From: a virus
Length of the DNA: 64,000 bases
Reading direction: 5' to 3' (one strand)
Virus record (IMG/VR): IMGVR_UViG_3300025545_000003
Coordinates: 32,001-96,000 of that record
In this document: positions 1-43,359 of the stretch, in pieces
Layout of the letters: each line of letters opens with the position of its first letter
How positions within the stretch are numbered: position 1 is the stretch's first letter
Program-made: the position numbers and the translations under genes
The notes under the pieces: generated by a model
What the model was told of the DNA's origin: nothing
Database searches by the model: none
Seen by the model: the letters and a program-made list of their open reading frames with translations, nothing else

Positions 1-29
1 GTAACCAAGCTCCATAAGTGGACTGGTGA

Positions 30-63
30 AAGCCGGGTAACCGAAAGGTTCCCCGGCTTTTTT
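30..63 (+). terminator. Intrinsic terminator (candidate attenuator) heading the + strand tRNA array
   Basis: AAGCCGGG-taaccgaaaggtt-cCCCGGCTT stem followed by a T-run. Confidence 0.8.
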
Positions 64-117: not shown

Positions 118-139
118 GGTCTTTGACAACTGAATAGTA
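118..139 (+). promoter_or_regulatory. rrn-type boxA-like antitermination site
   Basis: GGTCTTTGACAACTGAATAGTA; 21/22 identical copy before the second array at 42372-42393 (-). Confidence 0.65.
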
Positions 140-8255: not shown

Positions 8256-8333
8256 CTCCCTTCAACAGCACCGCAACAAGGAGAACACCATGGTACTTCG
8301 TCTCAAACAGCCGCCGACCCCCATTCGTTTACT

Positions 8334-8409
8334 GGGCCGGTAGCTCAACTGGATAGTCAGCAAGCGGCTTTTAACCGCTAGGTTCCGGGTTCAAGTCCCG
8401 GTCGGCCCA
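8334..8409 (+). tRNA. tRNA-Lys(TTT)
   Basis: Cloverleaf. Confidence 0.92.
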
Positions 8410-8414
8410 CTATT

Positions 8415-8488
8415 GCGGACGTAGCCAAGAGGTAAGGCATCGGGCTTCCACCCCGTGAGCGCCGGTTCGATTCCGGTCGTCCGCTCCA
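8415..8488 (+). tRNA. tRNA-Gly(TCC)
   Basis: Cloverleaf, CCA. Confidence 0.93.
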
Positions 8489-8499
8489 CCAACAGGGCT

Positions 8500-8895
8500 T
8501 AGGTAGTTCCTCTATTGCGTAGACACCCATGGGTAGGATGTCAGCCTCGGTGAAGCTGGGTACGCAGTGGAGGGGCACAAAACGACGCCTGCACCGCCCG
8601 TGAGATAGGCCCAAACGGGGAACCGTCAACCGGGGAGGGGGTGGAAGTCCTCTTGACCCGCCCGGAAGGGTCCTGCGTTGAGCCGTCATCTTGAGGGCGG
8701 CCTTGAAGGGCAGCGTAGGTACACCCCCTGAAGGACGCCCTTTGGCTGGTGCTTGGACTGGCCCCTGTGGATGAGGGTTTGTATCAACCAAGCTGGAAGC
8801 GGAGTACTCGTCCCCATTGTTGAATCCCACCTTCGGGTGCGGTACTGGACGAGCCGGAAGTACCCCATGGCACGGCGTACTTCCGGCTGTGGGCG
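8500..8895 (+). ncRNA. ~400-nt structured ncRNA candidate
   Basis: Long hairpins (AGCCGGAAGTAC/GTACTTCCGGCT; CTCGTCC/GGACGAG); phage promoter motif at 8497. Confidence 0.45.
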
Positions 8896-8898
8896 TGA

Positions 8899-8970
8899 GG
8901 GCGTATAACTCAGCGGAAGAGTGCCGTCTTGACAAGGCGGAAGTCCCTGGTTCAATCCCAGGTACGCCCA
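8899..8970 (+). tRNA. tRNA-Val(GAC)
   Basis: Cloverleaf. Confidence 0.93.
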
Positions 8971-8987
8971 CTGAATCGGAGGGCTAG

Positions 8988-9173
8988 GTGACGAACAAGG
9001 ACAAGTGGTTCGCAACCTGTATGGTGTTGATGCTTGTGACAGGCTTCGGTCTTGTGGGGCTTGGCCTCGACTCAACGCTGGCATCGATCTTTGAGGTGGC
9101 CGCAGCCGCCATCTGGCTCTTTGGAGTTCCGAAAGTCAGCCGTAGAGCACACCAGTACATCTACGGCAGGTAG
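8988..9173 (+). CDS. Small membrane protein
   Basis: RBS GGAGGG; two hydrophobic segments. Confidence 0.6.
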   Translation: MTNKDKWFATCMVLMLVTGFGLVGLGLDSTLASIFEVAAAAIWLFGVPKVSRRAHQYIYGR

Positions 9174-9179
9174 TTTTGG

Positions 9180-9251
9180 CGCGGGGTAGGGAAGTGGCAT
9201 CCTCCTTGGCTCATAACCAAGGGATCGGCGGTTCAAGTCCGCCCCCCGCAA
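9180..9251 (+). tRNA. tRNA-fMet(CAT)
   Basis: C1:A72 mismatch, CGCGGGG acceptor. Confidence 0.88.
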
Positions 9252-9254
9252 CCT

Positions 9255-9397
9255 CTCGGGCAATCTGACTCGGCCCGTAAGCCCGCCCCACGTCCCCGTC
9301 AGGGTGACGAGCACCCGAAAGGGTAGGGCAACAGGAGCAGACCGTGGGAAGACGCTTTGTACAGCGTCGGAATGCGTCCCGGAGGGACGCCCCACCG
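9255..9397 (+). ncRNA. Structured RNA candidate
   Basis: Motif shared with 4126-4292; several hairpins. Confidence 0.4.
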
Positions 9398-9398
9398 T

Positions 9399-9470
9399 GC
9401 GGGTGTAGTTCAGGGGTAGAACGTCAGCTTCCCAAGCTGGATGTCGTGGGTTCGAATCCCATCACCCGCT
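9399..9470 (+). tRNA. tRNA-Gly(CCC)
   Basis: Cloverleaf. Confidence 0.95.
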
Positions 9471-9474
9471 CTAT

Positions 9475-9547
9475 GGGGCCTTAGCTCACTTGGGAGAGCG
9501 CCGCTTTTGCAAGGCGGAGGTAGCCGGTTCGATCCCGGCAGGCTCCA
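9475..9547 (+). tRNA. tRNA-Ala(TGC)
   Basis: Cloverleaf, G3:U70. Confidence 0.95.
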
Positions 9548-9550
9548 CTA

Positions 9551-9608
9551 TGGGGAGGGCGGGGTGGTCAGGCCCGAAAGGGAGCAGCCATCCTGACCCT
9601 ACCCACCA
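9551..9608 (+). ncRNA. ffs: Minimal SRP (4.5S-like) RNA
   Basis: Hairpin with TCAGG-CCC-GAAA-GGG-AGCAG domain IV signature. Confidence 0.75.
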
Positions 9609-9659
9609 GGCTTAGCCTCCCGTTCACCTGTGTTGAAGAGGTGGACGACGGAGGACGAC

Positions 9660-10106
9660 ATGAGCGTTACATTTTGGTGCCCCGAAGCTCCCCGAGAGGC
9701 CATCGAGACCCCTTGCTGGGGCGAGTGCGACGAAACCTGCCCCATGTGTCACGGCACCAACGTGACCACGGAACAGGTCAGCCCGCACGAGATGAACCTC
9801 GCCAACGCCAACGCCTACAACATCCTCCTCGCCTTGGGTGTCCAGAGTGACGAATCCATGTGCGGCGGGTGGGAGACCCCCGAGGACATCCGCACCATCA
9901 GGGCGGCGATCCTCAAGGCCCGCAACGTGACAGGCCGCAGGGAAGGGGCACACCGAGACGCCGAATCCTACGGCGGGCCGGGAACTGGAACCTGCCGGGT
10001 CGTTTCGCAGGGCTACACCGACGAGCAGGTACTCGACCGGCTGACCCGGTTGGACAAGCTCCTCGCCTACGCTTTGGAGAACAGTCACCGGGTGGTTTGG
10101 GGATGA
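9660..10106 (+). CDS. Hypothetical protein (Cys-rich N-terminus)
   Basis: RBS GGAGGA; phage codon usage. Confidence 0.75.
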   Translation: MSVTFWCPEAPREAIETPCWGECDETCPMCHGTNVTTEQVSPHEMNLANANAYNILLALGVQSDESMCGGWETPEDIRTIRAAILKARNVTGRREGAHRDAESYGGPGTGTCRVVSQGYTDEQVLDRLTRLDKLLAYALENSHRVVWG

Positions 10107-10681
10107 GTGCTCACCGTGAGCGTGTGAAAATGCTCAAGCGGGTCAACGCCCACCAGCAAGTCAACGACCCCTTCTGGTTGTCCGGCTACACCGACGGAAG
10201 CCACCATCCCGACACAGGGAAGGGCGGCGTGGGCCTGTGGGTACGGGACAACGAGACCCGAATCCTCAAGGCTATACCGACCCCTCCGTGGGCTGTGAAC
10301 TCCAACCTCGTGGAACTGTTCGGGGTCTGCGCCGCCATTGAGACGGCCCTGACGGAACTCACACAGGAAGCCAACATCCTCGTCATCAAGACGGACAGCC
10401 AGAGCACGGCCAACTGGTTCGGCTGGCAGGGCAACAAGTCCGTACCGAAGCAGCCTGAAGCCCTCGAGATGATGCAGCACGTCCTAGAGCTTGCCACCGA
10501 CCGCCGAGTGAAGGTGGTCGTCAAGTGGGTGAAGGGACACCAAGGCACGGGCAGCGTCGTGGGCTACTTGAACAACCGGGTCGACAAGATGGCCCGTGAT
10601 GCACGACTGAAAGGTGTACCCTCTCGCTGGTCCTGCCGGGTCAACGAGGAACGCAAGCAAGGGCCTGTAGCTCAACGGTAG
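10103..10681 (+). CDS. rnhA: Ribonuclease HI
   Basis: YTDGS, VELFG, TDSQ, WVKGH, NNRVDKMA motifs. Confidence 0.9.
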   Translation: MSAHRERVKMLKRVNAHQQVNDPFWLSGYTDGSHHPDTGKGGVGLWVRDNETRILKAIPTPPWAVNSNLVELFGVCAAIETALTELTQEANILVIKTDSQSTANWFGWQGNKSVPKQPEALEMMQHVLELATDRRVKVVVKWVKGHQGTGSVVGYLNNRVDKMARDARLKGVPSRWSCRVNEERKQGPVAQR

Positions 10682-10733
10682 AGCCTCCCGCTCATAACGG
10701 GACGGTCGACGGGTTCGACTCCCTCCGGGCCCA
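10661..10733 (+). tRNA. tRNA(CAT), probably Ile2 (lysidine type)
   Basis: GGGCCTG acceptor, A73. Confidence 0.85.
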
Positions 10734-10783
10734 CTAGCCCCTAAACAGCAAGCAGCAGGGTAGGATAAGGCAGGAGGTGCCTC

Positions 10784-11023
10784 ATGCCGGATCTACCCTA
10801 CGTGATGCTCACTGGACTCATCCTCATGCTGGTCGGTGTTCCCCTCTGGATGTACCGCTCAGAGAAGAAGAAGGTGGAGGCCGGGTGTTGCGGGAAGCCG
10901 TGGATCTCCTACTGCCGTGACTCACAGGGCGGCATCGGCTTGAACTGTCAGGAGTGCGACAACGGCACTTGGGTATCCTACTACCGCAAGGGCTTCGTTG
11001 AGGGCGAACAGCAACCATTCTAG
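10784..11023 (+). CDS. Small membrane-anchored Cys-containing protein
   Basis: RBS AGGAGGT; N-terminal TM segment. Confidence 0.7.
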   Translation: MPDLPYVMLTGLILMLVGVPLWMYRSEKKKVEAGCCGKPWISYCRDSQGGIGLNCQECDNGTWVSYYRKGFVEGEQQPF

Positions 11024-11093
11024 GCTCGTAGCTCAGTGGGAGAGCGCCTGCTTCACACGCAGGAAGTCCCCGGTTCAAAACCGGGCGGGCCTA
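11022..11093 (+). tRNA. tRNA-Val(CAC)
   Basis: Cloverleaf. Confidence 0.93.
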
Positions 11094-11111
11094 CTTTGAA
11101 GGAGGGCTAAC

Positions 11112-11639
11112 ATGGAAAGCACACGCAGAGGGTTCCTTGCAGGAGCCGCTGGAGTCACAGGTTGGCTCCTGTTCGGCAAGGGTGCCGAAGCCGCAGCGAA
11201 GGCCGAGGGCAACCGTGTCCTGCGGGAGTTCGATGAGGACGTTGAGGGGTTTCCGCATCACGTCATCGAGATGCAGTTGACCTACGACAACCCGATGCTC
11301 CAGTTCGACGTGCCACTGCCGGACTCGGACTTCGATGGCCTACAGATCAGCATCCCAAGGCGTCAGACGGTGGGCCGCCACACGGCGACGGAGCTTGTGG
11401 ACTACCACAAGCGGAGCCAACCCGACGGTGACATCTGGGGGATCATCCGCCAGCGTGTACCCCAGATGGCACAGGCGAGGGTGAAGAATCCCGCCTACGG
11501 CGACCACAAGATGCACATCGCCACGGTGGTGTGCCACTGCCCGAGCGGGATCGAGGTGGGCATGACGGTGTTGCCCGTAGGCGTGACCGTCGAGGACATG
11601 CACCTGACCATCCCGGCAACGCTGTTGCCGCAGTCCTGA
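11112..11639 (+). CDS. Hypothetical protein with twin-arginine (Tat) signal
   Basis: STRRGFLAGAAG...AEA. Confidence 0.75.
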   Translation: MESTRRGFLAGAAGVTGWLLFGKGAEAAAKAEGNRVLREFDEDVEGFPHHVIEMQLTYDNPMLQFDVPLPDSDFDGLQISIPRRQTVGRHTATELVDYHKRSQPDGDIWGIIRQRVPQMAQARVKNPAYGDHKMHIATVVCHCPSGIEVGMTVLPVGVTVEDMHLTIPATLLPQS

Positions 11640-11657
11640 CAACGCACAAGGCTCCAA

Positions 11658-11733
11658 GGGCGAGTAGCGCAGTGGAAGTAGCACCGGCTTTACAAGCCGT
11701 AGGTCGTGGGTTCAATCCCCACCTCGCCCACCA
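11658..11733 (+). tRNA. tRNA-Val(TAC)
   Basis: Cloverleaf, CCA. Confidence 0.9.
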
Positions 11734-11772
11734 TTCAGGCTTAGCCGGACGCCCGTCCGTGTAGAGAACCTC

Positions 11773-12078
11773 ATGAAGCAGGAAACCCAAGAGTGCCCCC
11801 TGTGCCACCGTGACTGCCCACAGGCGATCATGACGGAGCACCACTTGAAGACCCGCAGGGTGGACAAGGACGACACGGCGATGCTGTGCCGGGAGTGCCA
11901 CAAGACGGTACACGGGCTCTTTGACAACAAGGAACTACGGGACTCGTCCAGAGGGCTGGACACGGTCGAGGGGCTGCTTGCAGACCCCTTGATCCGAAAG
12001 GCCCTCTCCCACATCAGGAAGCTCCCGCCCGGTCAGTTCATGCGGATGTATCGGGCCGGACGCCGCAAGAAGCGCTAG
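11773..12078 (+). CDS. Small HNH-family protein
   Basis: CPLC..TEHHL..LCRECHKTVH. Confidence 0.8.
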   Translation: MKQETQECPLCHRDCPQAIMTEHHLKTRRVDKDDTAMLCRECHKTVHGLFDNKELRDSSRGLDTVEGLLADPLIRKALSHIRKLPPGQFMRMYRAGRRKKR

Positions 12079-12094
12079 ACACCAATCCAAACAT

Positions 12095-12168
12095 GCCCCG
12101 GTAGCTCAGTGGATTAGAGCACACCCCTGCGGAGGGTGGGGTCGGAGGTTCGAATCCTCTCCGGGGTA
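12095..12168 (+). tRNA. tRNA-Arg(GCG)
   Basis: CACCC-CT-GCG-GA-GGGTG, A20. Confidence 0.9.
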
Positions 12169-12173
12169 CTTGT

Positions 12174-12185
12174 GCGCCCGTAGCT
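12174..12185 (+). pseudogene. 5' stub of split tRNA (Arg-like)
   Basis: GCGCCCGTAGCT; pairs with CGGGCGT at 12829-12835. Confidence 0.7.
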
Positions 12186-12228
12186 TTATGGTTTCTCCTC
12201 CGGTATTATCCGGGCAACAGGAGGAACC

Positions 12229-12741
12229 ATGCCAACCTGCAAGAAATGTGGTGTCTCATTCCCCAACAGGATAACGGTTGAGGGGGGCAGGCGAAACATC
12301 TCCAGACGGAAATTCTGCCTGACATGTTCCCCTTGGGGGTCTCGAAACCGAAAAGACCTGAGTGCCCCCTCGATTACCAGCGGAGTGAAAACCTGCCCTC
12401 GGTGTGGGGACGTGAAGGAACTCACTGAGTTCTACACCAGACGGAGAGGTAAGGAGTCCGAGCCTTCCTCCTACTGTAAGGCATGCGCCGCAGAGGAAGC
12501 ACGGGGACGTATGCGGGCATTGAAAGCCCGTTGCGTTGAGTACAAGGGAGGCGGGTGCCGGGTTTGTGGGTACTCGAAAAGCCTCGCTGCGTTGGATTTC
12601 CATCACAGGGATCCCAAGGAGAAAGGTTACGGGATTTCGCAGATCCGAGGTTGGAAATTCGAACGGGTAAAGGAAGAATTAGATAAATGTGACCTTCTGT
12701 GTCGGAATTGCCACTCAGAGGTTCATGACGAGGCCCTGTAA
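12229..12741 (+). CDS. HNH homing endonuclease
   Basis: Zn fingers plus YKGGGCRVCGY..FHHRDP..LLCRNCHSEVH; stop TAA = tRNA positions 8-10. Confidence 0.9.
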   Translation: MPTCKKCGVSFPNRITVEGGRRNISRRKFCLTCSPWGSRNRKDLSAPSITSGVKTCPRCGDVKELTEFYTRRRGKESEPSSYCKACAAEEARGRMRALKARCVEYKGGGCRVCGYSKSLAALDFHHRDPKEKGYGISQIRGWKFERVKEELDKCDLLCRNCHSEVHDEAL

Positions 12742-12804
12742 CCCAGTGGATAGGGTGCCTGACTTCGAATCAGGTTGTCGCAGGTTCGAGTCCTGCCAGG
12801 GCCA
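12732..12804 (+). tRNA. tRNA-Arg(TCG), replacement copy
   Basis: Cloverleaf. Confidence 0.93.
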
Positions 12805-12806
12805 TC

Positions 12807-12836
12807 AGGTTGGGAGTTCGAATCTCCCCGGGCGTT
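12807..12836 (+). pseudogene. 3' part of split tRNA (Arg-like)
   Basis: T-arm plus CGGGCGT. Confidence 0.8.
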
Positions 12837-12841
12837 CTTTT

Positions 12842-12918
12842 CAGGGGGTAGCTCAGTCTGGCAGAGTCCCGGCCTTGGACGCCGGTTGTCGCGGGTTCGA
12901 ATCCCGCCTCCCTGACCA
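12842..12918 (+). tRNA. tRNA-Pro(TGG)
   Basis: Cloverleaf, CCA. Confidence 0.95.
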
Positions 12919-29461: not shown

Positions 29462-32125
29462 ATGGCCAAGCCAGCAGCGAAACAGGAACTCACCCCCGTT
29501 GTAAGGGGAGACCGCTACCGACGAACCCACAGGGCCTCCGTGATCGGTGTCCTGGGCCGTCAGGCTCCTCCCGTTCTCAGCCGGGGATCCATGTTCTACA
29601 ACCTTGACCGCTGGACTGCACGGGCGCTCGTGTCCGAGATGTGCCAGTGGGCCGGGAAGAACAGGGGCTGCACCCCCACAGCGAAGGACGTAGCCGACTG
29701 GGTCTCCAAGGCCAACAACATGACCGCCCCGGAGCGGTGCATCGTCATTGCCAACACACCCGACAAGCTGCCCCTCAAGGTAGCCCTTGGCCTGACCGGC
29801 GGGGCGTACCACGAGGCGTTCCACACGAAGTACTCCTGCCGCAGACCACTACAGGTGAAGGAGTGCGTGAACTTCATCCTGCCCCGTTGGGCGCTGGTGA
29901 AGGACTGGAGTGGGCTCCACAAGGCCCTCCAAGAGTGGAACAACATCATCGAGGACATACGCATCGAGCGCCGGGGCCGTGAGGACTACGAGGGTTCGCA
30001 CACGAAGCTGGCCGACTTGCAGGACTTCATCCTCGACAAGGAGGCCGCAGGCGTCGAACAGGTGCGCTCCCACGGGGGCAAGCCGGGAGCCTTGTCTGTG
30101 ATCGTCCGGGCGTTCCGTGACGTGGGTCTTGGGTACAACACCGAGCGCCAGCGTGAAGCCTTCGCCGAGTACAAGACGGACAACCCGGATGCCGTCGACC
30201 TTGTGATGACCGGCCCGCTGACCCCGATGCTTCAGGACACCATCGATCTGTCCGCCAAGGACGATCTCGGGTGCATCCGACTGGCGATGGACGTCGTTGC
30301 CAAGATCGGGGAGTTGGGCGGTATGGACGAGTCCGACGACAAGGCCCAGGACGGGCAGCACGGCGACGGGATGCAAACGTGCCCCGGTTGTGGCGCACCC
30401 GCCTCCAAGATCGTTGTACGGCCCCTCTCAGACGGCAAGGGAGGCAAGGTTCGGGGCAAGGGCCTCGCTACCTGCACGGCCTGTGGCCATCAGGAAGAGG
30501 TCGACGTCAAGAAGAAGTCTGCCGCCGATAAGGCCAAGGACAAGAAGGACAAGCAGGCGGGCAAGAAGTCCGCACCCGGCCCCAAGTTCGAAGGCTTCGA
30601 CGAGGACGACTTCGACGATGAAGGCGACGGTGGGGGCGAAGGTGAGGCCGGTGACGGTCAGGGTGGCTCCGGTTCGTCCGGTGGCAAGTCTGACGGGGAC
30701 GAGGACGGCGACGGTTCGTCCGGCTCCGGTGGAGACGAAGACGGCGATGACGACGGGGACGGCTCCGGGTCTGGGAAAGACGGCGATGAGGGTGACGAAG
30801 ACGGCGACGGTTCCAAGGACGGCAGCGACAAGGATGGCGATGCTGCCGGTGGCGATGGTGGTGACGGAGACGGGGACGGGGACGACGAGGGCAAGGACGG
30901 CAAGGCCGGACAGGGAGCCAATCAGGGAAGCGCCAGCCAGCACCAAGGCATCGACCAGCCGGACATAGGCCCGGACGGGAGCGACCAGTCGGGCGGGGCC
31001 GGGGGGCACCACCACGCCCAAGGCCCCCACGCAGGCAACGATCACAAGTGGGAGGACGTCGCCGAGCAGGCGTTGAACGACGCACAGTCCGGCAAGGACA
31101 CCCACGCCCTCGACAACAACAAGGCGCTGGAGAATGCGGTCAACGCTGCCGAGGACAAGGAAGACTCGGACACGGAGACCGGCGAGGCCCCGTGGAAGCC
31201 CTACAATCCGGGCCTCGATGAAGCGCTGCTGGTTCCTCATTCGGGCCGGGGCCGGGAACACGACATGGCCGAAGCCACGAAGCTGGTCAAGTCCGTTACG
31301 TCCGAGTCCGCCTACACGAGAGCCCGCCTGCGGAACATCGTCCGGGCACTGGAGATGACCAGCACTGTTCATGGCGTACAGCACGGGCGCAACCTGTCCA
31401 CCCGCTACCTCGTGGACTCCAAGGCGTGCCTGCGGGGCGGGGAGATGCCGAAGCGTCCCTACTACCGCAAGGGCTTGCAGACGGACATGTCGATGGCGGC
31501 AGCGGTTGTCGTGGACGAGTCCGGTTCGATGAGCGGGTGGCTGGCCGACGCCGCCCGGATCATGATCGCCATCACGGAGCCTCTGGACGCCCTCAACTGC
31601 CCGACACTGGCCTTGGGATTCAGGGACGGGCGTCGGGGAGGGCGGTACAACGACTACCGGACTGACCCGGACGAGGACGTCAAGAACCGCCTGTACCACC
31701 GCCATGAGGGCGTCATCTACGACATCTTCAAGCAGTGGCACGAAGGATTCCGCACCGTGAAGTGGCGCTTCGCCAACACGAGGGCCACTGGCGGCACCCC
31801 GATGTCCGACGGGATCCAGTACGCCCTCAACGCCATCTCCCTGCGGAGCGAAGCTCACCGCTTCGTGTTCGTAGTCACGGACGGTTGCCCCAACTACGGG
31901 CACGAGGCCGTGATCAAGCGGCAGATCCGCCTCGCCAAGCAGGCCAACATCCACGTCGTCGGGGTTGGGATGGGCTACGGAGCCAAGTACGTCGAGGCCC
32001 TGTTCGTGGACTCGGTCTACTCCGACAAGATCCCCGAGATCCCCAAGGGGCTCGTCGCCAAGATGAACGAACTGGTCGATGCCCGCACGGGACGCCGGGG
32101 CATGGTCTACAAAGACAAGGGCTAG
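29462..32125 (+). CDS. CobT-like vWA-domain protein with Asp/Gly-rich linker
   Basis: HEAFH, NIIEDIRIE, DESGSM MIDAS, GGTP, VTDG. Confidence 0.88.
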   Translation: MAKPAAKQELTPVVRGDRYRRTHRASVIGVLGRQAPPVLSRGSMFYNLDRWTARALVSEMCQWAGKNRGCTPTAKDVADWVSKANNMTAPERCIVIANTPDKLPLKVALGLTGGAYHEAFHTKYSCRRPLQVKECVNFILPRWALVKDWSGLHKALQEWNNIIEDIRIERRGREDYEGSHTKLADLQDFILDKEAAGVEQVRSHGGKPGALSVIVRAFRDVGLGYNTERQREAFAEYKTDNPDAVDLVMTGPLTPMLQDTIDLSAKDDLGCIRLAMDVVAKIGELGGMDESDDKAQDGQHGDGMQTCPGCGAPASKIVVRPLSDGKGGKVRGKGLATCTACGHQEEVDVKKKSAADKAKDKKDKQAGKKSAPGPKFEGFDEDDFDDEGDGGGEGEAGDGQGGSGSSGGKSDGDEDGDGSSGSGGDEDGDDDGDGSGSGKDGDEGDEDGDGSKDGSDKDGDAAGGDGGDGDGDGDDEGKDGKAGQGANQGSASQHQGIDQPDIGPDGSDQSGGAGGHHHAQGPHAGNDHKWEDVAEQALNDAQSGKDTHALDNNKALENAVNAAEDKEDSDTETGEAPWKPYNPGLDEALLVPHSGRGREHDMAEATKLVKSVTSESAYTRARLRNIVRALEMTSTVHGVQHGRNLSTRYLVDSKACLRGGEMPKRPYYRKGLQTDMSMAAAVVVDESGSMSGWLADAARIMIAITEPLDALNCPTLALGFRDGRRGGRYNDYRTDPDEDVKNRLYHRHEGVIYDIFKQWHEGFRTVKWRFANTRATGGTPMSDGIQYALNAISLRSEAHRFVFVVTDGCPNYGHEAVIKRQIRLAKQANIHVVGVGMGYGAKYVEALFVDSVYSDKIPEIPKGLVAKMNELVDARTGRRGMVYKDKG

Positions 32126-37498: not shown

Positions 37499-37822
37499 AT
37501 GTCCAAGTTCACCGTCGACTGTTTCACCGAGAAGTCACTCCCGGAGCCGGGGTTCCCTGAGAACACCTACGAGGCGGCCACCGTGCTGGAGGCTGCGGCT
37601 GTTGTCCATAACTGCACCCGCAAGCAGGCCGGGATCAGGATGGTTCAGATCTGGATCGAAGAGCCGGACGACCGAGAGGCCGTCGACACGCTCAAGACGT
37701 GCCGGTGTGGGACGAAGGGATGCGATACAAAGCGCATTGACCCTGACGAGGTAGCGAAGGCGCTGGGGGCGGAGAAGGCCGTGAAGCCGAAGAACCTGCC
37801 CCGCAGGCCGGGGACACGGTAG
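37499..37822 (+). CDS. Hypothetical protein
   Basis: RBS AGGAGG. Confidence 0.7.
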   Translation: MSKFTVDCFTEKSLPEPGFPENTYEAATVLEAAAVVHNCTRKQAGIRMVQIWIEEPDDREAVDTLKTCRCGTKGCDTKRIDPDEVAKALGAEKAVKPKNLPRRPGTR

Positions 37823-37823
37823 G

Positions 37824-37909
37824 CGGAAGCGGAGGGAGTCGAACCCTCAAGGCCGTAAAGCTCGCCTGTTTTCAAGACAGGTGCCGTCGCCACGTCGGCT
37901 GGCGCTTCC
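37824..37909 (-). tRNA. tRNA-Ser(TGA)
   Basis: Long variable arm, G73. Confidence 0.92.
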
Positions 37910-37931
37910 AAGTTGAACAGTAGGTCTTCGT

Positions 37932-38022
37932 TGGCGGAAGGAGGGGGAGTCGAACCCCCAAGGCGCTCATCACGCTCGACCACTTTCCAAGCGGCTGCCA
38001 TCACCAATTGGCTTGCCCTTCC
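37932..38022 (-). tRNA. tRNA-Ser(GGA)
   Basis: Cloverleaf, CCA. Confidence 0.93.
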
Positions 38023-38026
38023 AAAG

Positions 38027-38113
38027 TGCGACCGGAGGGATTCGAACCCTCACGCCAGTCATTGTTGACACTGGCCCCTCAAGCCAGCGCGTCTACCATT
38101 CCGCCACGGTCGC
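38027..38113 (-). tRNA. tRNA-Leu(GAG)
   Basis: Cloverleaf. Confidence 0.93.
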
Positions 38114-38118
38114 ATGAG

Positions 38119-38200
38119 TGCTGCCGGTGGGACTCGAACCCACACACCTCAAGGGCACGGGCCTCTCAGACCCGCATGTCTACCATTCCATCACGACAGC
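38119..38200 (-). tRNA. tRNA-Leu(GAG)
   Basis: Cloverleaf. Confidence 0.93.
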
Positions 38201-38207
38201 ATAGAAA

Positions 38208-38322
38208 GCACCCCAGCACGTAGGGAACCACGGGTTGGTTACCGCTGGCCGCCCACTCCTCCCAGAAGTGCTGCTTCTCTGTGGTCTTGGACACCCCTGA
38301 TCTACAGCCCCGGCTGGGGTGC
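38208..38322 (-). ncRNA. Small structured RNA candidate
   Basis: 10-bp closure GCACCCCAGC/GCTGGGGTGC. Confidence 0.45.
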
Positions 38323-38325
38323 CTT

Positions 38326-38415
38326 TGGCGGAAGGACGGGGAGTCGAACCCCGAAGGCCGGTTAAGGCTCGCTGGTTTTCGAAACCAGTGCAGTCGCCCA
38401 TCTGCTTGCCCTTCC
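38326..38415 (-). tRNA. tRNA-Ser(CGA)
   Basis: Cloverleaf, CCA. Confidence 0.93.
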
Positions 38416-38416
38416 A

Positions 38417-38492
38417 TGGAGCGCTCGCCCGGACTTGAACCGGGGACCACCGGCTTCGGAGGCCGGGACTCTATCCACTGAGCTACGAGCGC
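38417..38492 (-). tRNA. tRNA-Arg(CCG)
   Basis: Cloverleaf, CCA. Confidence 0.94.
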
Positions 38493-38497
38493 AAAGG

Positions 38498-38648
38498 TGG
38501 GGGAGGTAGGAATCGAACCTACAATGCCCTCTCGGGCGGTCTGCTTTACAGGCAGATGTCTATACCTTGCTGAAGTCGCAACAGAGTTCCCGACCGGGGT
38601 CAGGATAAGGTCGTCACAACGAGTAGCGTGACTTTTGACCACTCCCCC
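38498..38648 (-). tRNA. tRNA-Tyr(GTA) with ~65-nt structured D-loop insertion
   Basis: Perfect acceptor, anticodon, variable and T arms; D-loop expanded. Confidence 0.8.
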
Positions 38649-38652
38649 ATAG

Positions 38653-38725
38653 AGCCAACGACGGGAATCGAACCCGTAACCCCTTGCTTACCATGCAAGT
38701 GCTCTACCGTTGGAGCTACGTTGGC
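38653..38725 (-). tRNA. tRNA-Thr(GGT)
   Basis: Cloverleaf. Confidence 0.93.
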
Positions 38726-38743
38726 ATGCTTGAATCAGACAAG

Positions 38744-38815
38744 AGCCCAGTACCGGAGTCGAACCGATGTCAGCGGGTTACAAATCCGCTGCTCTGCCAC
38801 TTGAGCTAACTGGGC
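38744..38815 (-). tRNA. tRNA-Thr(TGT)
   Basis: Cloverleaf. Confidence 0.92.
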
Positions 38816-38848
38816 AAATCAGGTGCTCTACCGTTGAGCCACGCTAGC
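38816..38848 (-). pseudogene. Orphan 5' half of a tRNA (Thr-like)
   Basis: GCTAGCG-TG-GCTCAACGGTAGAGC-A-CCTGA-TTT, abutting tRNA-Thr(TGT). Confidence 0.75.
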
Positions 38849-38852
38849 AAAG

Positions 38853-38924
38853 AGCCGAAGGTCGGAATCGAACCGACAACCTGCCGCTTACGAAACGGCT
38901 GCTCTACCATTGAGCTACATCGGC
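38853..38924 (-). tRNA. tRNA-Thr(CGT)
   Basis: Cloverleaf. Confidence 0.92.
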
Positions 38925-38928
38925 AAAG

Positions 38929-38979
38929 TGCGACCGGGGGGAGTCGAACCCCCACGCCTCAAAGGCACCGGATTCTAAG
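38929..38979 (-). pseudogene. 3' half of split tRNA-Leu(TAG)
   Basis: CTTAGAA-TCCGG, variable arm, T-arm, CGGTCGC-A. Confidence 0.88.
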
Positions 38980-39059
38980 TGGCTGAGGTGGGAGTCGAAC
39001 CCACACGCCCTAAGCGCCCGCCTCTAAAACGGGTGCGTCTACCGTTCCGCCACTCAGCC
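38980..39059 (-). tRNA. tRNA-Leu(TAG), replacement copy
   Basis: Cloverleaf; HNH stop lies within its acceptor stem. Confidence 0.92.
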
Positions 39060-39554
39060 TTTTTCTTGTTTGGTCACGGAGGTCAACCCTTTGCTATTAC
39101 ACCACCCAGGTTGTTGGGAGTGGCAGTTAGGGCACAGGAATCGTAAGTTTTCAGGGCGGTTGTCTAACCAGTCTCGGTTGATGTGGTCCACCTGTAGCAT
39201 GAGGGGTTTCCCGACCCACACTCCCTCGATCCCACAAGATTCGCACGCATAGGGCCGCCCACTGTCAAGGAGAGCCCTCCGTAAGCGGTACGCTGCGGTA
39301 CGCCTCCCTGTGTCCTTCTTTGACAGGGTAGTTAGCCACGGAGTCTTTCCCGGGCCTCCCTTATGGGCTGTTCCCTTGTTGGATCCTTGACCGTGGAAAT
39401 GGACTGTGTCGAGTCCGTATTCCCGTACCTTACGGGTGATGTGCGTTTGTGTCCCGCCCGCCTGTTTCACCCCCAAATCTCGAAGCACGCCCGCCATGGA
39501 AGTGTTCTGTTGAACAAGTGGGGCTAGGATCTCTTTTGTGTAACGTCGTCCCAT
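39054..39554 (-). CDS. HNH homing endonuclease
   Basis: CESCG..LQVDHINRDWLDNRPENLRFLCPNCHSQ. Confidence 0.9.
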   Translation of the reverse strand: MGRRYTKEILAPLVQQNTSMAGVLRDLGVKQAGGTQTHITRKVREYGLDTVHFHGQGSNKGTAHKGGPGKTPWLTTLSKKDTGRRTAAYRLRRALLDSGRPYACESCGIEGVWVGKPLMLQVDHINRDWLDNRPENLRFLCPNCHSQQPGWCNSKGLTSVTKQEKG

Positions 39555-39586
39555 ACACAGCTTACGGTATAGGCTAGCAACCGGAA

Positions 39587-39616
39587 CCGGCGTGTCTACC
39601 GTTTCACCACGGTCGC
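39587..39616 (-). pseudogene. 5' half of split tRNA-Leu(TAG)
   Basis: GCGACCG-TGGTGAAACGGTAGACAC-GCCGG. Confidence 0.88.
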
Positions 39617-39621
39617 AAAGG

Positions 39622-40465
39622 ATGACCACCCGTAGCCGGGATCCTGTTTTATGGACACATTCATCTAGTGGCCCCTACCCGTCCGCATAGCGCTGCTCAC
39701 CCGCTCTTGGCCCAACCCCGATGCCGAGAGCGTTGCCCTGAAAAGAGCTTCTGCATTCCTTGGCGTGTAAGGCCGTGACGTTGGCAGAACAGATTGAGGG
39801 ACGGGGTCACTTCGTGTTCAGCCCCGTCAGGAGAACGGACTTTGGGGTAGGGCTGCTTCTTCTTAGTGCGGCTGATCGCCGCCTTTTCCGCTTCCGTTGG
39901 GGAAGCCTTCCGACCACCCGATCCCACAGCGTTCTTATTGCCCCGCTGCAAAAGTGACAGGGCTTGCTTCGTTTCTTCTGTATGCTTGTAACCCAGGCTG
40001 TTGCCTGCTTCTGGGAGGATGTTGTACTTCTTGGCTTTCGGGGTCTTGTCCAACCACTCCTGTTCCTTCTCCAAGAGCTTGTCGTGGGCCGCCTGAACAA
40101 GCACAAAGAAGCAAATGTCCTCTTCACCCCTCTTGGCAAAGGCTCGTTGTAAGGGGGTGTTATGGTGGGTGCCTTTTCGAAGAAGCCTCCCATGTGCTGA
40201 GAACCTCTTGTAGAGATCCACTGCGGACCCGATGTAGAGCTTCCCCGAAGCCCTACTTCTGATGGCATAGACACCGCTCTTACCGTGTAGCGCAGAATAA
40301 GGGGTACCTTTCATGGAAGGGTCCAATTTCATAGGCCAAAGATACCACGTTCCTGTTTGGGTTGCACCCTCGGAAGTGCGAACGGCCTACGGCCTCCTTC
40401 CTTCAGCAGTGGTGTCCCGAGCTTCCTCACATCCCTTGCGGGGTAGTGCGTGCCCTCAGTGGTCA
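39622..40465 (-). ncRNA. rnpB: Minimal RNase P RNA interrupted by a GIY-YIG ORF
   Basis: P1 TGACCAC/GTGGTCA; GAGGAAGCTCGGG..CACC; GGGTGCAACCCAAA; GGGTAGG..CTAGATGAATG..ACAGGATCCCGGCTAC. Confidence 0.8.
39697..40332 (-). CDS. GIY-YIG homing endonuclease
   Basis: SGVYAI..LYIGSA..R...H..HHN..LQ..EQEWLD..YN; NUMOD3-like KHTEETK. Confidence 0.93.
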   Translation of the reverse strand: MKLDPSMKGTPYSALHGKSGVYAIRSRASGKLYIGSAVDLYKRFSAHGRLLRKGTHHNTPLQRAFAKRGEEDICFFVLVQAAHDKLLEKEQEWLDKTPKAKKYNILPEAGNSLGYKHTEETKQALSLLQRGNKNAVGSGGRKASPTEAEKAAISRTKKKQPYPKVRSPDGAEHEVTPSLNLFCQRHGLTRQGMQKLFSGQRSRHRGWAKSG

Positions 40466-40550
40466 TGGTGCCAGAGGGGGGACTCGAACCCCCACGCCTC
40501 AAGGACAGACGGTTTTGAACCGACCGCGTCTACCATTCCGCCACTCTGGC
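40466..40550 (-). tRNA. tRNA-Leu(CAA)
   Basis: Cloverleaf, CCA. Confidence 0.93.
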
Positions 40551-40558
40551 AAGTAAGT

Positions 40559-40647
40559 TGGTGGAGGAGGTGGGATTCGAACCCACTCACCGCAACGCGG
40601 ACCAGATTTACAGTCTGGCGTGACTCTCCAACTTCAACCGCTCCTCC
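40559..40647 (-). tRNA. tRNA-Tyr(GTA)
   Basis: Cloverleaf, CCA. Confidence 0.92.
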
Positions 40648-40651
40648 AAAG

Positions 40652-40723
40652 TGGAAAGGGGTGGAATCGAACCACCGACACGGGGATTTTCAGTCCCCTG
40701 CTCTACCTCTGAGCTACCCCTCC
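40652..40723 (-). tRNA. tRNA-Phe(GAA)
   Basis: Cloverleaf. Confidence 0.95.
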
Positions 40724-41124
40724 ATGCGTTTCCAGTCCCCGAACTCCTCCTTGCCGCCCCTGCACCCCCAGTCCGAGTCGATGACCAGGCGGGACGAGAT
40801 CCCGCCACGGGGCCGGAGGTCCGCTACGAGGCGCAACCGGGCCGGTTCATAGACCGCCACGAGATCCTCGTAGATGACGTTGATGAGGCGTTCGTAGGAG
40901 ATCACCTTGGACCTGAAGGCCACCACGTACTCCTTGAGTGCCTTCAGTTCGATGATCCAGTCCGCCGGGTAGAAGACCAACGTCAGGTGACCGAAGTCCG
41001 GTTGCTGTTTGACGCCCATGAACGTCAACTCCGGGATCTCCATCCTGATCTCGTACCCGTCTGGGTCGGGGTTCGGCAGCCTCTTCAGCTTGTCCTTCTC
41101 CGACCACTTGTCATGCTTGCCCAT
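40714..41124 (-). CDS. QueF-like T-fold protein lacking the catalytic Cys
   Basis: PE.T.....QPDF..IELKALKEY..FR...ISYE..N.I..DL...PRGGI. Confidence 0.85.
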   Translation of the reverse strand: MGKHDKWSEKDKLKRLPNPDPDGYEIRMEIPELTFMGVKQQPDFGHLTLVFYPADWIIELKALKEYVVAFRSKVISYERLINVIYEDLVAVYEPARLRLVADLRPRGGISSRLVIDSDWGCRGGKEEFGDWKRMEG

Positions 41125-41163
41125 GTCGTTCCCCCTTGTTGTCCGGGGAACTATACCGATCAG

Positions 41164-41237
41164 TGCCAAGGGGCGGGATCGAACCGCCGACACCCCGGAT
41201 TTCACCCGAGTGCTCTACCTACCTGAGCTACCTTGGC
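41164..41237 (-). tRNA. tRNA-Phe(GAA)
   Basis: Cloverleaf. Confidence 0.88.
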
Positions 41238-41243
41238 AGAAGG

Positions 41244-41315
41244 CAGAGGTAGTGGGAATCGAACCCACCCGACGGTCGGTTTTGGAGACCAACCCGCTTA
41301 CCCAGAGCCACCTCT
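41244..41315 (-). tRNA. tRNA-Trp(CCA) with atypical D-arm
   Basis: Loop CT-CCA-AA, G73. Confidence 0.75.
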
Positions 41316-41349
41316 ACAAGAATGTGCGGGGAATCGAACCGGGGCTTTG

Positions 41350-41805
41350 CTAGCGAATGAACTTGAGGGCTTGGGCGTTGACCATCTTCAGGATGTCACG
41401 GGGGGACATGGAGGCGAAGGAGGTCATCGACATGGAGTGCGTGCTGGTTTCCTCGTCCTCGATCCCCTTTTCCTCTACATAGACGAACACCCACCACTGT
41501 ACCTGGTTGCGTTGGAAGTCGGGGGTGAAGTACGCGATGACGTGGTCCTCACCCGGAGTCGAGGACTGGCTGGGGGAGGGGAGATTCGGGAAAGCGATCT
41601 CCACAGTCATCCCCTTCCTGTAAATCTCGCCCACATGGTCGGCCTGCGTGGCCTTGCCGACCTTCTTCATCCACTGGAAGAATGCCTTGTGGAACAGACC
41701 GATAAGGTCACCCGTTGCCGCCTCTTTCCGCAGAAGGGGCAGGATGTGCTTGCGGGTTTCAGGTACTTCATGGGCCAGTCTGACCAGTTCGCTTTTAAGA
41801 TCCAT
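41350..41805 (-). CDS. Hypothetical (possibly virion) protein
   Basis: RBS AGGAGG; MDLKSELVRLAH..RKHILPLL. Confidence 0.7.
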   Translation of the reverse strand: MDLKSELVRLAHEVPETRKHILPLLRKEAATGDLIGLFHKAFFQWMKKVGKATQADHVGEIYRKGMTVEIAFPNLPSPSQSSTPGEDHVIAYFTPDFQRNQVQWWVFVYVEEKGIEDEETSTHSMSMTSFASMSPRDILKMVNAQALKFIR

Positions 41806-41849
41806 GGGGTCCTCCTGTGTCCCTAATGGAACCTTATAGCCCAAGTAGG

Positions 41850-41932
41850 TGCCAGAGGGGGGACTCGAACCCCCACGCCTCAAGGATATCCGGGCTTAAA
41901 CCGGATGCGGCTACCAGTTACGCCATCCCGGC
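41850..41932 (-). tRNA. tRNA-Leu(TAA)
   Basis: Cloverleaf; 3' part identical to tRNA-Leu(CAA). Confidence 0.85.
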
Positions 41933-41941
41933 GTATGAAAG

Positions 41942-42027
41942 TGGATGATCAAGGAATCGAACCTTGCTGCCGCGTCAGCGGACCGGGGTTACAGCCCAGC
42001 GCAAGCACCAGCTTGACCGTATCATCC
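41942..42027 (-). tRNA. tRNA-Tyr(GTA)
   Basis: Cloverleaf with long variable arm. Confidence 0.85.
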
Positions 42028-42032
42028 AGAGG

Positions 42033-42119
42033 CGGAGGGAGAGGGAGTCGAACCCTCAAGGCCGATTAAGGCTCGTCCGGTTAGCAACCGGGTGCAGTCA
42101 CCGATCTGCTTGCCCCTCC
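42033..42119 (-). tRNA. tRNA-Ser(GCT)
   Basis: Cloverleaf. Confidence 0.93.
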
Positions 42120-42131
42120 GTGAATTGGACC

Positions 42132-42240
42132 GGGTCGCTCTTATCGTCTTCCTGGGGCGTTGCCACCCCGCAGACGTTTATCCACGACCAACCGCTGTAC
42201 AAGCGGCTGCGCTATCCCCCGAGGGGGAGCCCAACGACCC
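42132..42240 (-). ncRNA. Small structured RNA candidate
   Basis: GGGTCGTT/AGCGACCC closure; three internal hairpins. Confidence 0.45.
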
Positions 42241-42244
42241 AAAG

Positions 42245-42327
42245 TGCTGCTGAAAGGAGTCGAACCTTCACGCCCCGAAGGACACTTGGACCTGAACCAA
42301 GCGCGTCTACCATTCCGCCACAGCAGC
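42245..42327 (-). tRNA. tRNA-Leu(CAG)
   Basis: Cloverleaf. Confidence 0.93.
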
Positions 42328-42371
42328 AAAGAACGGTGCTGGAAGCTGGGCAACTCCCAGCACCGAAGACC

Positions 42372-42393
42372 TACTATTCAATTGTCAAAGACC
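42372..42393 (-). promoter_or_regulatory. boxA-like antitermination site
   Basis: GGTCTTTGACAATTGAATAGTA, near-identical to 118-139. Confidence 0.65.
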
Positions 42394-42429
42394 CTCTGGC
42401 CGCCGCCCTGTGGCAGAGGCCCTAAACGC

Positions 42430-42463
42430 AAAAAGCCCGCTCCGGGTGTGTCCGGGCGGGCTT
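42430..42463 (-). terminator. Attenuator terminator
   Basis: AAGCCCGCCCGG-ACACAC-CCGGAGCGGGCTTTTT. Confidence 0.85.
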
Positions 42464-42485
42464 CCAAGGTCAGCAGATGTTGTGC

Positions 42486-42584
42486 TTACCCCGTTACACC
42501 CTCCGGCGCACTCGTGGACAGATACGACCAGCCGGTAAGGCTGACGTGCGTCCGCAAGCTGAAGGTTGTAAATAAGGTCTGCAT
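42486..42584 (-). CDS. Leader peptide MQTLFTTFSLRTHVSLTGWSYLSTSAPEGVTG
   Basis: RBS AGGAG; lies between promoter and terminator; codons mirror the downstream tRNAs. Confidence 0.75.
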   Translation of the reverse strand: MQTLFTTFSLRTHVSLTGWSYLSTSAPEGVTG

Positions 42585-42608
42585 CTCGGTCTCTCCTGTT
42601 CGCCCCTG

Positions 42609-42637
42609 ACGCTAGAGGCCCTTTGGGCTCCTGTCAA
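42609..42637 (-). promoter_or_regulatory. sigma70-type promoter of the tRNA-array leader
   Basis: TTGACA-N17-TAGCGT. Confidence 0.7.
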
Positions 42638-42759
42638 GGCTTTTCTCACGAAGATCCCCACAGGGGGGCTTCACGTCCGTCCACACAGAACAGGAAGGGC
42701 CTAAGCCCCTTGCCGGTAGATTCGTTATGAGGCTACTCCAGTAGGACATGGAGGCCCGC

Positions 42760-43359
42760 ATGAGCAAGCACACGAACCGGGTAGCAGCCCGGTATATTAA
42801 GAGAGCCGCCAGCGAAGACCGCAAACAGTTCGACATGGGCGTCAAGGCCATCGGGACATCGCTCCTGCGGATGAAGGACGTGGTCTTCCTCTGGACAGGG
42901 AGGGGAACACCCCCTCCGGGACACGGGGCAGAGGGCTACGAGTCCCTGGCTGACGTGTACGGCCCTGTGCAGCATGTCGTGAACAAGATCGAGGACCTTG
43001 AGAAAGCCTACATCAGCCTCAAGCGTGTTCGTGTGGCCTCCAAGCGGATGGACCCCAAGTTCAAGCGGGCCGTCATTCCGTTGTTCAAGCGGGCAGGCCT
43101 GGATGGCAACGGGCGGTTCAGGAAGCCCCAACACGGGTACTCCAAGGCGTTGGACATCCTCGCCAAGTTCGAGATCGAACTGGACGACGTCGTGTCGTCC
43201 CACCTGTTCAACGGGGACAGCGGGACGATCCGGGCGGACCTGGCCTATTCGAACTCAGAGGACCCGTTCTCCCCTGAGTCGATTTCCAACTCGGTGCTGG
43301 TCATTTCGTTCACTAAGATGGCCAAGGACAGCTATGAGGTGCTGGCGTATCTGTCATGA
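42760..43359 (+). CDS. Hypothetical (probable virion) protein
   Basis: RBS GGAGG; RVAARY motif. Confidence 0.75.
   Translation: MSKHTNRVAARYIKRAASEDRKQFDMGVKAIGTSLLRMKDVVFLWTGRGTPPPGHGAEGYESLADVYGPVQHVVNKIEDLEKAYISLKRVRVASKRMDPKFKRAVIPLFKRAGLDGNGRFRKPQHGYSKALDILAKFEIELDDVVSSHLFNGDSGTIRADLAYSNSEDPFSPESISNSVLVISFTKMAKDSYEVLAYLS

Follow-up and report, generated by a model that had tools for sequence, protein, structure and literature searches.

A candidate leader-peptide attenuator whose codons match the tRNA array behind it in a phage genome

The stretch of DNA analysed here, referred to hereafter as the window, comprises 64,000 nucleotides (nt), bases 32001-96000 of the 106,830-b IMG/VR virus record IMGVR_UViG_3300025545_000003 (G000). 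On its minus strand a 32-codon open reading frame (ORF), which we call leader ORF 2, lies between a promoter and an intrinsic terminator ahead of a block of tRNA genes (array 2). Our results make it probable that this leader (leader 2) is a ribosome-mediated transcription attenuator that reports the decoding speed of its array's own codons. A preliminary description of this DNA, written from the letters of the sequence, had proposed an attenuator that samples the tRNAs of its own array. The proposal gains support from a second leader in the same genome, from conserved leader ORFs in relatives, from covariation of leader codons with array content and from covariation of ORF ends with terminators.

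The elements on the minus strand follow one another in the order promoter, AGGAG, leader ORF, terminator, short hairpin, boxA, 14-bp hairpin and tRNA-Leu(CAG) at 42327 (Table 1). The promoter, ribosome-binding site, ORF, terminator and boxA-like site claimed for this strand in the preliminary description were each found where it had placed them. Its count of 20 tRNAs stood in part: 17 were called by ARAGORN, from 42327 to 37822, but the remaining three were recovered only as sub-threshold Rfam hits in a permissive search. These extra genes are a second Tyr-GTA (42027-41943), Trp-CCA (41316-41244) and a 154-nt tRNA-like gene (38648-38495). In all, array 2 contains Leu x7, Ser x4, Thr x3, Phe x2, Tyr x2-3, Trp and Arg-CCG, which gives 16 anticodon types when Trp is counted, and is broken up by QueF, HNH and GIY-YIG ORFs and one unnamed ORF. 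Its types read every Leu, Ser, Thr, Phe, Tyr and Trp codon plus CGG. The remaining sense codons, except ATA, are read by a plus-strand array (array 1); ACG and CGG are readable by both arrays.

As the preliminary description had counted, 20 of the 24 sampling codons of leader 2 (codons 2-25) are read by array 2 and 14 of the 16 anticodon types are touched, provided that the Trp tRNA is included; the only types missed are the CTA and TCA readers. The chance expectation was taken from every stop-free 24-codon segment in six frames of the whole record (n = 127,682). These segments contained on average 7.4 codons read by array 2 (standard deviation 3.0) and two of them reached 20, both inside leader ORF 2. 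Eight segments touched at least 13 anticodon types, again all in leader ORF 2, and the next best elsewhere touched 12. Relative to the codon usage of the phage's own long ORFs, in which 29% of codons are of this kind, the match was above chance (binomial p=4e-8; background codon tables were built from long ORFs rather than curated genes). None of 20,000 dinucleotide-preserving shuffles reached 20, and the other two frames across the same stretch scored 6 and 8. Codons for Pro and Ala, which like those for Ser and Thr can have C in the second position but are served by array 1, are absent from codons 2-25. The codons singled out earlier as rare in this DNA proved to be so, accounting for 1% of Leu (TTA), 8% of Ser (AGT), 12% of Tyr (TAT) and 14% each of their amino acids (TTT and ACA).

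Searching the whole record with leader 2 located boxA again, just 5' of array 1. The module to which this copy belongs (leader 1) lies mostly outside the window and has the same order of parts as the leader 2 module: a GGGC/GCCC stem-loop with a TTAG loop, an A-rich stretch, TTGACA, GGAGG, an ORF, a terminator 27 nt past the stop codon, a hairpin, boxA, another hairpin and tRNA-His. The ORF of leader 1 (L002:1229-1387:+) has 52 codons, starts 154 nt ahead of the window and specifies a peptide unrelated to that of leader 2. Array 1 reads 45 of the 52 codons, and 23 of 28 anticodon types are touched; among 79,467 segments of equal length, 0.98% match leader 1 on types. When both leaders were set against both arrays in a contingency table, the association was clear (Fisher test, p=1.3e-4). 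Leader 1 is written in a codon set complementary to that of leader 2, and the two modules split the genetic code, one per array.

Relatives of leader 2 were retrieved via an alignment of homologs of a 203-aa protein encoded next to it. Direct DNA search and searches with single proteins (the 203-aa neighbour, Cpn60 and a NadD-like protein) found no new relatives in viral contigs, and a leader homolog was absent from the cultured-phage collection, in which similarity was of tRNA to tRNA only. Three loci were recovered in which the neighbour gene faces a minus-strand tRNA array: L242 (viral, GC content 0.46), L274 (0.59) and L308 (0.49). The neighbour protein is 38-59% identical across these loci, and GC content spans 0.46-0.62 with G000 included. 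Each locus combines a TTGACA promoter with a ribosome-binding site, an ORF and a terminator 24-25 nt past the stop codon, and the start, frame, length (28-32 codons) and stop position of leader ORF 2 are retained (L242:4699-4785:-, L274:1001-1099:- and L308:2686-2781:-). A recognisable boxA variant is present in L242 and L308, and a diverged look-alike only in L274; contig ends truncate the arrays of L274 and L308. The four peptides can be aligned, and the alignment gives 173 codon pairs, 51 of them identical, 39 synonymous and 28 representing exchanges inside the Leu/Ser/Thr/Phe/Tyr/Trp set. Differences were most frequent at the third codon position (60, 69 and 97 at positions 1, 2 and 3). 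That the ORF has stayed open, in frame and of the same make-up at such a distance argues that it is under selection, most simply because it is translated. Other loci of the neighbour family (L253/L351 and L297) have boxA-like cores ahead of tRNAs, without the ORF and the terminator. The leaders compared in this study were picked by eye, in loci chosen through boxA or the neighbouring gene.

Leader codons in related phages co-vary with array content, as would be expected of the attenuator proposed earlier. Besides tRNAs for the same six amino-acid families, the array of L242 includes two tRNA-Glu(UUC) and one tRNA whose anticodon is GCA. The leader of L242 differs from that of G000 in containing two Cys codons and three Glu codons. 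The 22 sampling codons of this leader touch 14 of 15 anticodon types (P about 1e-5). The position of tRNA-Arg(CCG) is mirrored in a similar way. In G000 this tRNA is in array 2, and CGG occurs in leader 2 and not among the four Arg codons of leader 1. In G001, a 74-kb record in which the NrtR-like and NadD-like genes are again found upstream (about 40% identity), the tRNA belongs to the His-Asn-Lys array, and CGG is present in the homologous leader (L115:7889-8041:-). Leaders non-homologous to these (in G002, G003 and L185) were found by the boxA pattern. The G003 leader is a 21-codon ORF rich in Ser, Thr and Ile, and its array is exactly Ile, Ser, Thr, Ser, Thr (p=0.001). G002, a 260-kb phage, has a single long array, and its 47-codon leader contains all 20 amino acids, as do about 1% of segments of that length. 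Over seven leader/array pairs, the total match of the true pairing was equalled in 2 of 5,040 permutations; with five non-homologous pairs it was equalled in 1 of 120, the smallest value possible.

The ends of the leader ORFs are matched to the terminators that follow. The 5' arm of the terminator starts 23-30 nt past the stop codon in all nine leaders compared; in leader 2 it begins 24 nt past, and the U run is at 42434-42430. Duplex energies between ORF ends and terminator arms amounted to -183 kcal/mol for the true pairs vs -136 kcal/mol expected (nine leaders, permutation p=5e-5). Terminator sequences vary from one relative to another, and the ORF ends vary along with them, each in line with its own terminator. 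The folds reported here are thermodynamic predictions with a crude ribosome mask of 30 nt; in those described next the RNA was ended before the 3' arm is made. With the ribosome stalled early in the ORF, the 5' arm was predicted to be paired upstream with a probability of 0.80-0.99 over the leaders (0.80 in leader 2), and its predicted partner was the last ORF codons. With the ribosome at the stop codon, predicted sequestration of the 5' arm was 0.15-0.70. The predicted fall in leader 2 starts at about codons 24-28, where the sampling codons give way to the G/C-rich tail. An antiterminator between 42501-42490 and 42456-42444, put forward in the preliminary description, is feasible at -17.2 kcal/mol as one of several registers, but the terminator is the stronger structure (-22.0 kcal/mol). 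In silico, leader 2 displays four of the features that define a leader-peptide attenuator, namely the ORF, the codons, the terminator and an antiterminator that is predicted to be masked.

We propose that transcription would begin at the TTGACA promoter and that a ribosome would load on the 32-codon leader, whose codons 2-25 would sample almost all the tRNA species of the downstream array, at roughly one codon each. When decoding is fast, the ribosome would remain close behind RNA polymerase and cover the last seven codons and the stop codon as the terminator emerges; the terminator hairpin would then form and the transcript would end ahead of the tRNAs. Slow decoding of any sampled codon, with the charged tRNA scarce, would cause the ribosome to lag, and the bare G-rich end of the ORF could pair with the C-rich 5' arm of the terminator, allowing the polymerase to continue. 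The polymerase would then meet a boxB-like hairpin and the rRNA-type boxA, probably becoming termination-resistant, and such a complex could cross the ~4.6-kb array with its high degree of structure and its intervening ORFs. New tRNAs would restore decoding and close the switch, a negative feedback on the tRNA pool. The sequences themselves show the anatomy, the codon match, the conservation of the ORF, the covariation of leaders with arrays and the complementarity of ORF ends to terminator arms. In this scheme, translation of the ORF, the kinetic coupling of ribosome and polymerase, the direction of the switch, and the function of boxA and its dependence on Nus factors are what we infer.

The role given to boxA rests on where its sequence recurs. 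The 18-mer is present twice in the window, one copy ahead of each array, vs 0.01 copies expected by chance, and was found in 106 IMG/VR contigs. In about 12 fetched viral loci (GC content 0.40-0.61) it is located 23-110 nt ahead of a tRNA array on the same strand, or between tRNAs. In bacterial genomes from many phyla, 28 of 125 occurrences are 53-306 nt 5' of the 5' end of a 16S gene. The phage boxA is UCUUUGACAA; its core differs by one base from that of the E. coli rrn boxA, which we take to be UCUUUAACAA. From these matches we read the 18-mer as an rRNA-type antitermination site that may have been borrowed for long, structured tRNA arrays. The position of the terminator is in keeping with such a role. 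It is 5' of boxA in all eight leader loci with a recognisable boxA (L274 has the diverged look-alike only), and a conditional terminator must be placed there because the modified polymerase would ignore it. Some phages (L085, L053/59/65) have a TTGACA-N17-TATAAT promoter, a hairpin and then boxA, without an ORF or terminator. A 30-nt boxA query identified no cultured phage carrying the element ahead of tRNAs.

The TTGACA within boxA was also considered as the -35 hexamer of a second promoter. This candidate was rejected, as no -10 hexamer is present 16-18 nt further on in either copy, and it is contradicted as well by the presence of this 18-mer within tRNA arrays and in rRNA leaders. Most of the 106 viral occurrences (L003-L108) adjoin neither tRNAs nor 16S genes.

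Several observations weigh against an attenuator that reports on the tRNAs of its own array. The promoter described earlier has the two hexamers and the 17-nt spacer, but its -10 hexamer, TAGCGT, is weak and a consensus promoter scan left the site uncalled. Each tRNA species is sampled by one or two codons, without runs, so that sensitivity to losing a single species may be low. Taken alone, leader 1 was only marginally enriched (p=0.05), as was the G001 leader (p=0.03). The arrays behind these two leaders serve about 75% of all codons, which explains the marginal values and leaves a test of leader 1 alone with little power. Enrichment was not significant for the leaders of G002 (p=0.4) and L185 (p=0.3), and the L242 leader has CGG and ATA codons for which there is no tRNA in the visible array. 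The leader peptide is partly conserved and may have a role of its own.

The predicted folds also fit the scheme imperfectly. With the ribosome at the stop codon, masking lowers sequestration of the 5' arm, but in leader 2 only to 0.26-0.33, and in L185 and leader 1 hardly at all. When the full RNA was folded to equilibrium, the terminator was favoured in every ribosome state (predicted probability 0.86-1.0), so the choice made by the switch must be kinetic. A protector (1:2) hairpin was not found; in the unconstrained partial fold the 5' arm stays sequestered in all leaders (0.80-0.99), from which read-through of an untranslated leader is predicted, in contrast to trp. The trp/his/thr-type geometry assigned to leader 2 in the preliminary description is borne out for the leader ORF, the terminator and the predicted antiterminator, but not for the protector hairpin. 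On these models, its absence departs from the trp paradigm without contradicting the class of leader-peptide attenuators as a whole.

The same predictions bear on an alternative that we regard as unlikely, in which the leader senses translation or coupling in general, or serves as a timing device, its read-through reports the pace of the ribosome (global capacity or the stage of infection) and the codon match arises as a by-product. The same output would result from any ribosomal lag and from an untranslated leader, and single codons for each tRNA species give weak specificity. In L085 and L053, moreover, boxA is directly behind a strong promoter with no leader, suggesting that the leader is an optional modulator. 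A general sensor, however, would need no particular codons, and leader codons track array content to the extent seen in the permutations (2 of 5,040), include rare codons, and in one genome are divided between two leaders as the code is divided between the arrays.

We give a still lower probability, of a kind best called slight, to a separate small gene, consisting of a promoter, a 32-residue micropeptide or small RNA of ~175 nt, and its own terminator, with the array transcribed from another start. The partial conservation of the peptide in four phages and a strong, thermodynamically dominant terminator would suit such a gene, and boxA contains a TTGACA that could pass for a -35 hexamer. This hexamer lacks a suitably spaced -10, as described above, and the leader has no Pfam or Rfam match. 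A free-standing micropeptide would not explain a codon make-up that follows the array, nor would it account for unrelated peptides at the same place before other arrays or for ORF ends that match their own terminator arms. Finally, a chance or compositional artefact, in which one frame of a pyrimidine-rich stretch spells Leu, Ser, Thr and Phe by accident, is scarcely credible: the ORF was noticed after the fact and these amino acids share U or C at the second codon position, yet the shuffles, the other frames, the genome-wide extreme and the absence of Pro and Ala all speak against it, and the pattern is seen again in non-homologous leaders and in three relatives.

If the leader is an attenuator sensing its own array, the data agree as well with simple supply-and-demand feedback on the tRNA pool as with counter-defence against anticodon nucleases. 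The natural trigger may be anticodon nucleases, host tRNA decay, codon mismatch or amino-acid shortage. A broader view, which we advance tentatively and hold to be possible rather than likely, is that large phages carry modular checklist attenuators with about one leader codon per tRNA species. Losing any one species would open the block that holds its replacement, the split of the arrays and the wording of the leaders would co-evolve, and the device would serve as a self-closing sensor of the tRNA pool and a counter-defence switch. Losses of this kind may be caused by host anticodon nucleases, phage-driven decay of host tRNAs or codon-usage mismatch.

A full-text literature search turned up no account of leader-peptide control of tRNA genes. 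By analogy, leader 2 would work like the multivalent attenuators of amino-acid operons and the pheM-pheST attenuator, which are its nearest known systems. Among the enterobacterial multivalent attenuators, the ilvGMEDA leader samples Ile, Leu and Val, and the thr leader samples Thr and Ile. As in these, a short translated ORF (putative here) with codons for several amino acids is placed between promoter and genes, and the 5' arm of the terminator has an alternative upstream partner, the position of the ribosome picking the fold. The genes regulated encode biosynthetic enzymes there and would be phage tRNA genes here, and runs of codons for one to three amino acids are replaced by one or two codons for each of up to 14-23 tRNA species. 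In addition, the antiterminator here would be provided by the ORF's own last codons, a protector hairpin was not identified, and an rRNA-type boxA follows the terminator. In trpL of E. coli, with its segments 1-4, the 1:2 pairing terminates transcription when the leader is untranslated, whereas the untranslated phage leader is predicted to read through. The proposed logic is otherwise that of trpL, in that a stall at hungry codons would favour the antiterminator, reaching the stop codon would favour the terminator, and the terminator is the more stable of the two structures, so that the choice is kinetic. The E. coli pheM leader (pheST) is similar in that an attenuator lies over a gene of the translation apparatus with feedback through charged tRNA; pheM, however, senses one amino acid and controls a synthetase, while the products here are the tRNAs themselves.

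T-box riboswitches share with the attenuator proposed for leader 2 a leader RNA with a terminator/antiterminator choice, a response to tRNA status and translation-related genes, but T-boxes bind uncharged tRNA directly, without translation. There was no T-box hit in window 42200-42800 at E-values up to 10, and none at E<=0.01 in six related loci; no other Rfam family matched any of these leaders. Further systems close to the phage modules are the antitermination leaders of rRNA operons, which contain boxB-boxA-boxC and act with NusB, NusE, NusA and NusG, and the nut sites of lambda (PMC2800207, PMC3177189, PMC10250234). The phage modules resemble them in their boxA-like 18-mer, identical to sequence before 16S genes, and in a hairpin ahead of boxA, as boxB is. 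They differ in that the phage boxA, a putative site for Nus factors, would serve tRNA arrays and stands behind a terminator proposed to be conditional.

Why phages carry tRNA genes, and at what times they use them, has been debated for decades. Among the proposals are codon compensation, the replacement of host tRNAs that have been degraded and evasion of anticodon nucleases (PMC10264068, PMC11464382). If our interpretation is correct, the phage measures the decoding of the codons of its arrays and makes tRNAs on demand, and the debate becomes a testable circuit in which one can ask which depletion opens which array. Leader-peptide attenuation, known from amino-acid operons and a small number of translation genes, would then also apply to tRNA genes and occur in viruses, in a highly multiplexed form with 14-23 tRNA species per leader. 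The leader is compact and portable, and might be used to report the supply of individual tRNAs.

The features of the two modules are collected in Table 1. The completeness of the record according to CheckV is 20%, implying a phage genome of several hundred kb; its GC content is 0.62. Leader 2 and array 2 are on the minus strand between divergent genes, and to the right of leader 2 the plus strand carries the gene for the 203-aa protein, which is of unknown family, and a Cpn60 chaperonin gene.

Table 1. Positions in the window of the parts of the leader 2 and leader 1 modules
Feature	Position	Strand	Basis or remark
Promoter: -35 TTGACA (42637-42632), 17-nt spacer, -10 TAGCGT (42614-42609)	42609..42637	-	Read from sequence; A-rich stretch just 5'
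Shine-Dalgarno-like AGGAG, 8 nt 5' of ATG	42593..42597	-	Read from sequence
Leader ORF 2, 32 codons + TAA	42486..42584	-	ATG at 42584; codon statistics; kept in L274, L308, L242
Sampling part of leader ORF 2, codons 2-25	42581-42510	-	Codon match to array 2
Codons 26-32 of leader ORF 2, G/C-rich, predicted to form the antiterminator strand		-	End of ORF
Predicted antiterminator strand, complementary to terminator 5' arm and loop	42489..42513	-	Constrained folds, duplex energies
Intrinsic terminator: 11-bp G/C-rich stem with one bulge (42462-42434), then UUUUUGCGUUU	42424..42462	-	-22 kcal/mol
rRNA-type boxA 18-mer	42374..42391	-	Sequence match; short hairpin 5' of it, ~42419-42394
14-bp hairpin with U-rich tail, between boxA and first tRNA	42334..42365	-	Sequence
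tRNA array 2, 20 tRNA-like genes	37822..42327	-	ARAGORN and permissive Rfam search
End of leader 1: stop codon 2-4, terminator stem 32-57, U run 58-63	1..63	+	
Second copy of boxA 18-mer	120..137	+	Followed by hairpin 157-193, then array 1
tRNA array 1, 34 tRNAs	292-12918	+	

Other leaders have similar signals. A TTGACA or TTGACT -35 hexamer, a spacer of 16-18 nt and a TAnnnT-like -10 hexamer are present in the eight leaders with a recognisable promoter; among the nine compared, none was recognised in that of L185. Seven of the nine have a ribosome-binding site 8-10 nt 5' of the ATG, the other two being the G003 leader, which looks leaderless, and L185, which is without a Shine-Dalgarno-like site. 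The long hairpin that separates boxA from the first tRNA, and whose tail is U-rich, recurs in the leader 1 module, G001, L242 and L308; it might be a nut-boxB-like site, a second terminator or a stem used in processing. About 60 nt 5' of the -35 hexamer, both leader promoters of G000 have the same small stem-loop with a GGGC stem and TTAG loop (window 42710-42695 on the minus strand and L002 about 1083-1100 on the plus strand), which could be an insulating terminator or a protein site. Directly 5' of leader 1 are an NrtR-like gene (identified by eye) and a gene for a NadD-type cytidylyltransferase (Pfam) at G000:C1:29684-31654, a pair that is syntenic in G001.

A structured leader of another kind was seen in L165 and L240, contigs from metagenome-assembled genomes, the former from a record labelled Acidimicrobiales. 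Here a promoter, a ~125-nt structured leader, a terminator and boxA precede an array of the form Gly-Gly-Thr-Thr-Thr(-Ile), and the module is ~300 nt ahead of the boxA match. These two were not counted as leader-peptide cases, as there was no convincing ORF. The leader has compensatory changes in its hairpin and no Rfam hit, and may be a different, RNA-only sensor.

Further RNA genes were noted in and around the arrays. A transfer-messenger RNA (tmRNA) gene is located 3' of array 2 (window 35789-35424, minus strand). Others are found in L242 (1593-1950, minus strand) behind an array of the array 2 type and in G001 (29528-29896, minus strand) inside an array of the array 1 type (His-Asn-Lys). 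The 154-nt tRNA-like gene of array 2, on the minus strand, combines acceptor and T arms of normal form with a GTA anticodon loop and is enlarged by an insert of ~80 nt; its counterpart at the matching position in L242 (3207-3340, minus strand) measures 134 nt, and ARAGORN misses both. The GCA-anticodon (Cys) tRNA of L242 (4230-4315, minus strand) is 87 nt long with a long variable arm resembling type II. At window 3740-3813 (plus strand) there is a tRNA by Rfam (46.9 bits), missed by ARAGORN, with the anticodon loop CATTCAA and A at position 33. Two Y RNA-like (YrlA) hits are 3' of the tRNA array in a Bryobacterales-binned contig (L185 788-1033, minus strand), and a group I intron is present in the array region of G001 (L041 77-317, minus strand). 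Within array 1, a GOLLD RNA at window 1496-1936 (plus strand; 154 bits, above the Rfam gathering score) encloses tRNA-Thr(CGT) at 1563-1635.

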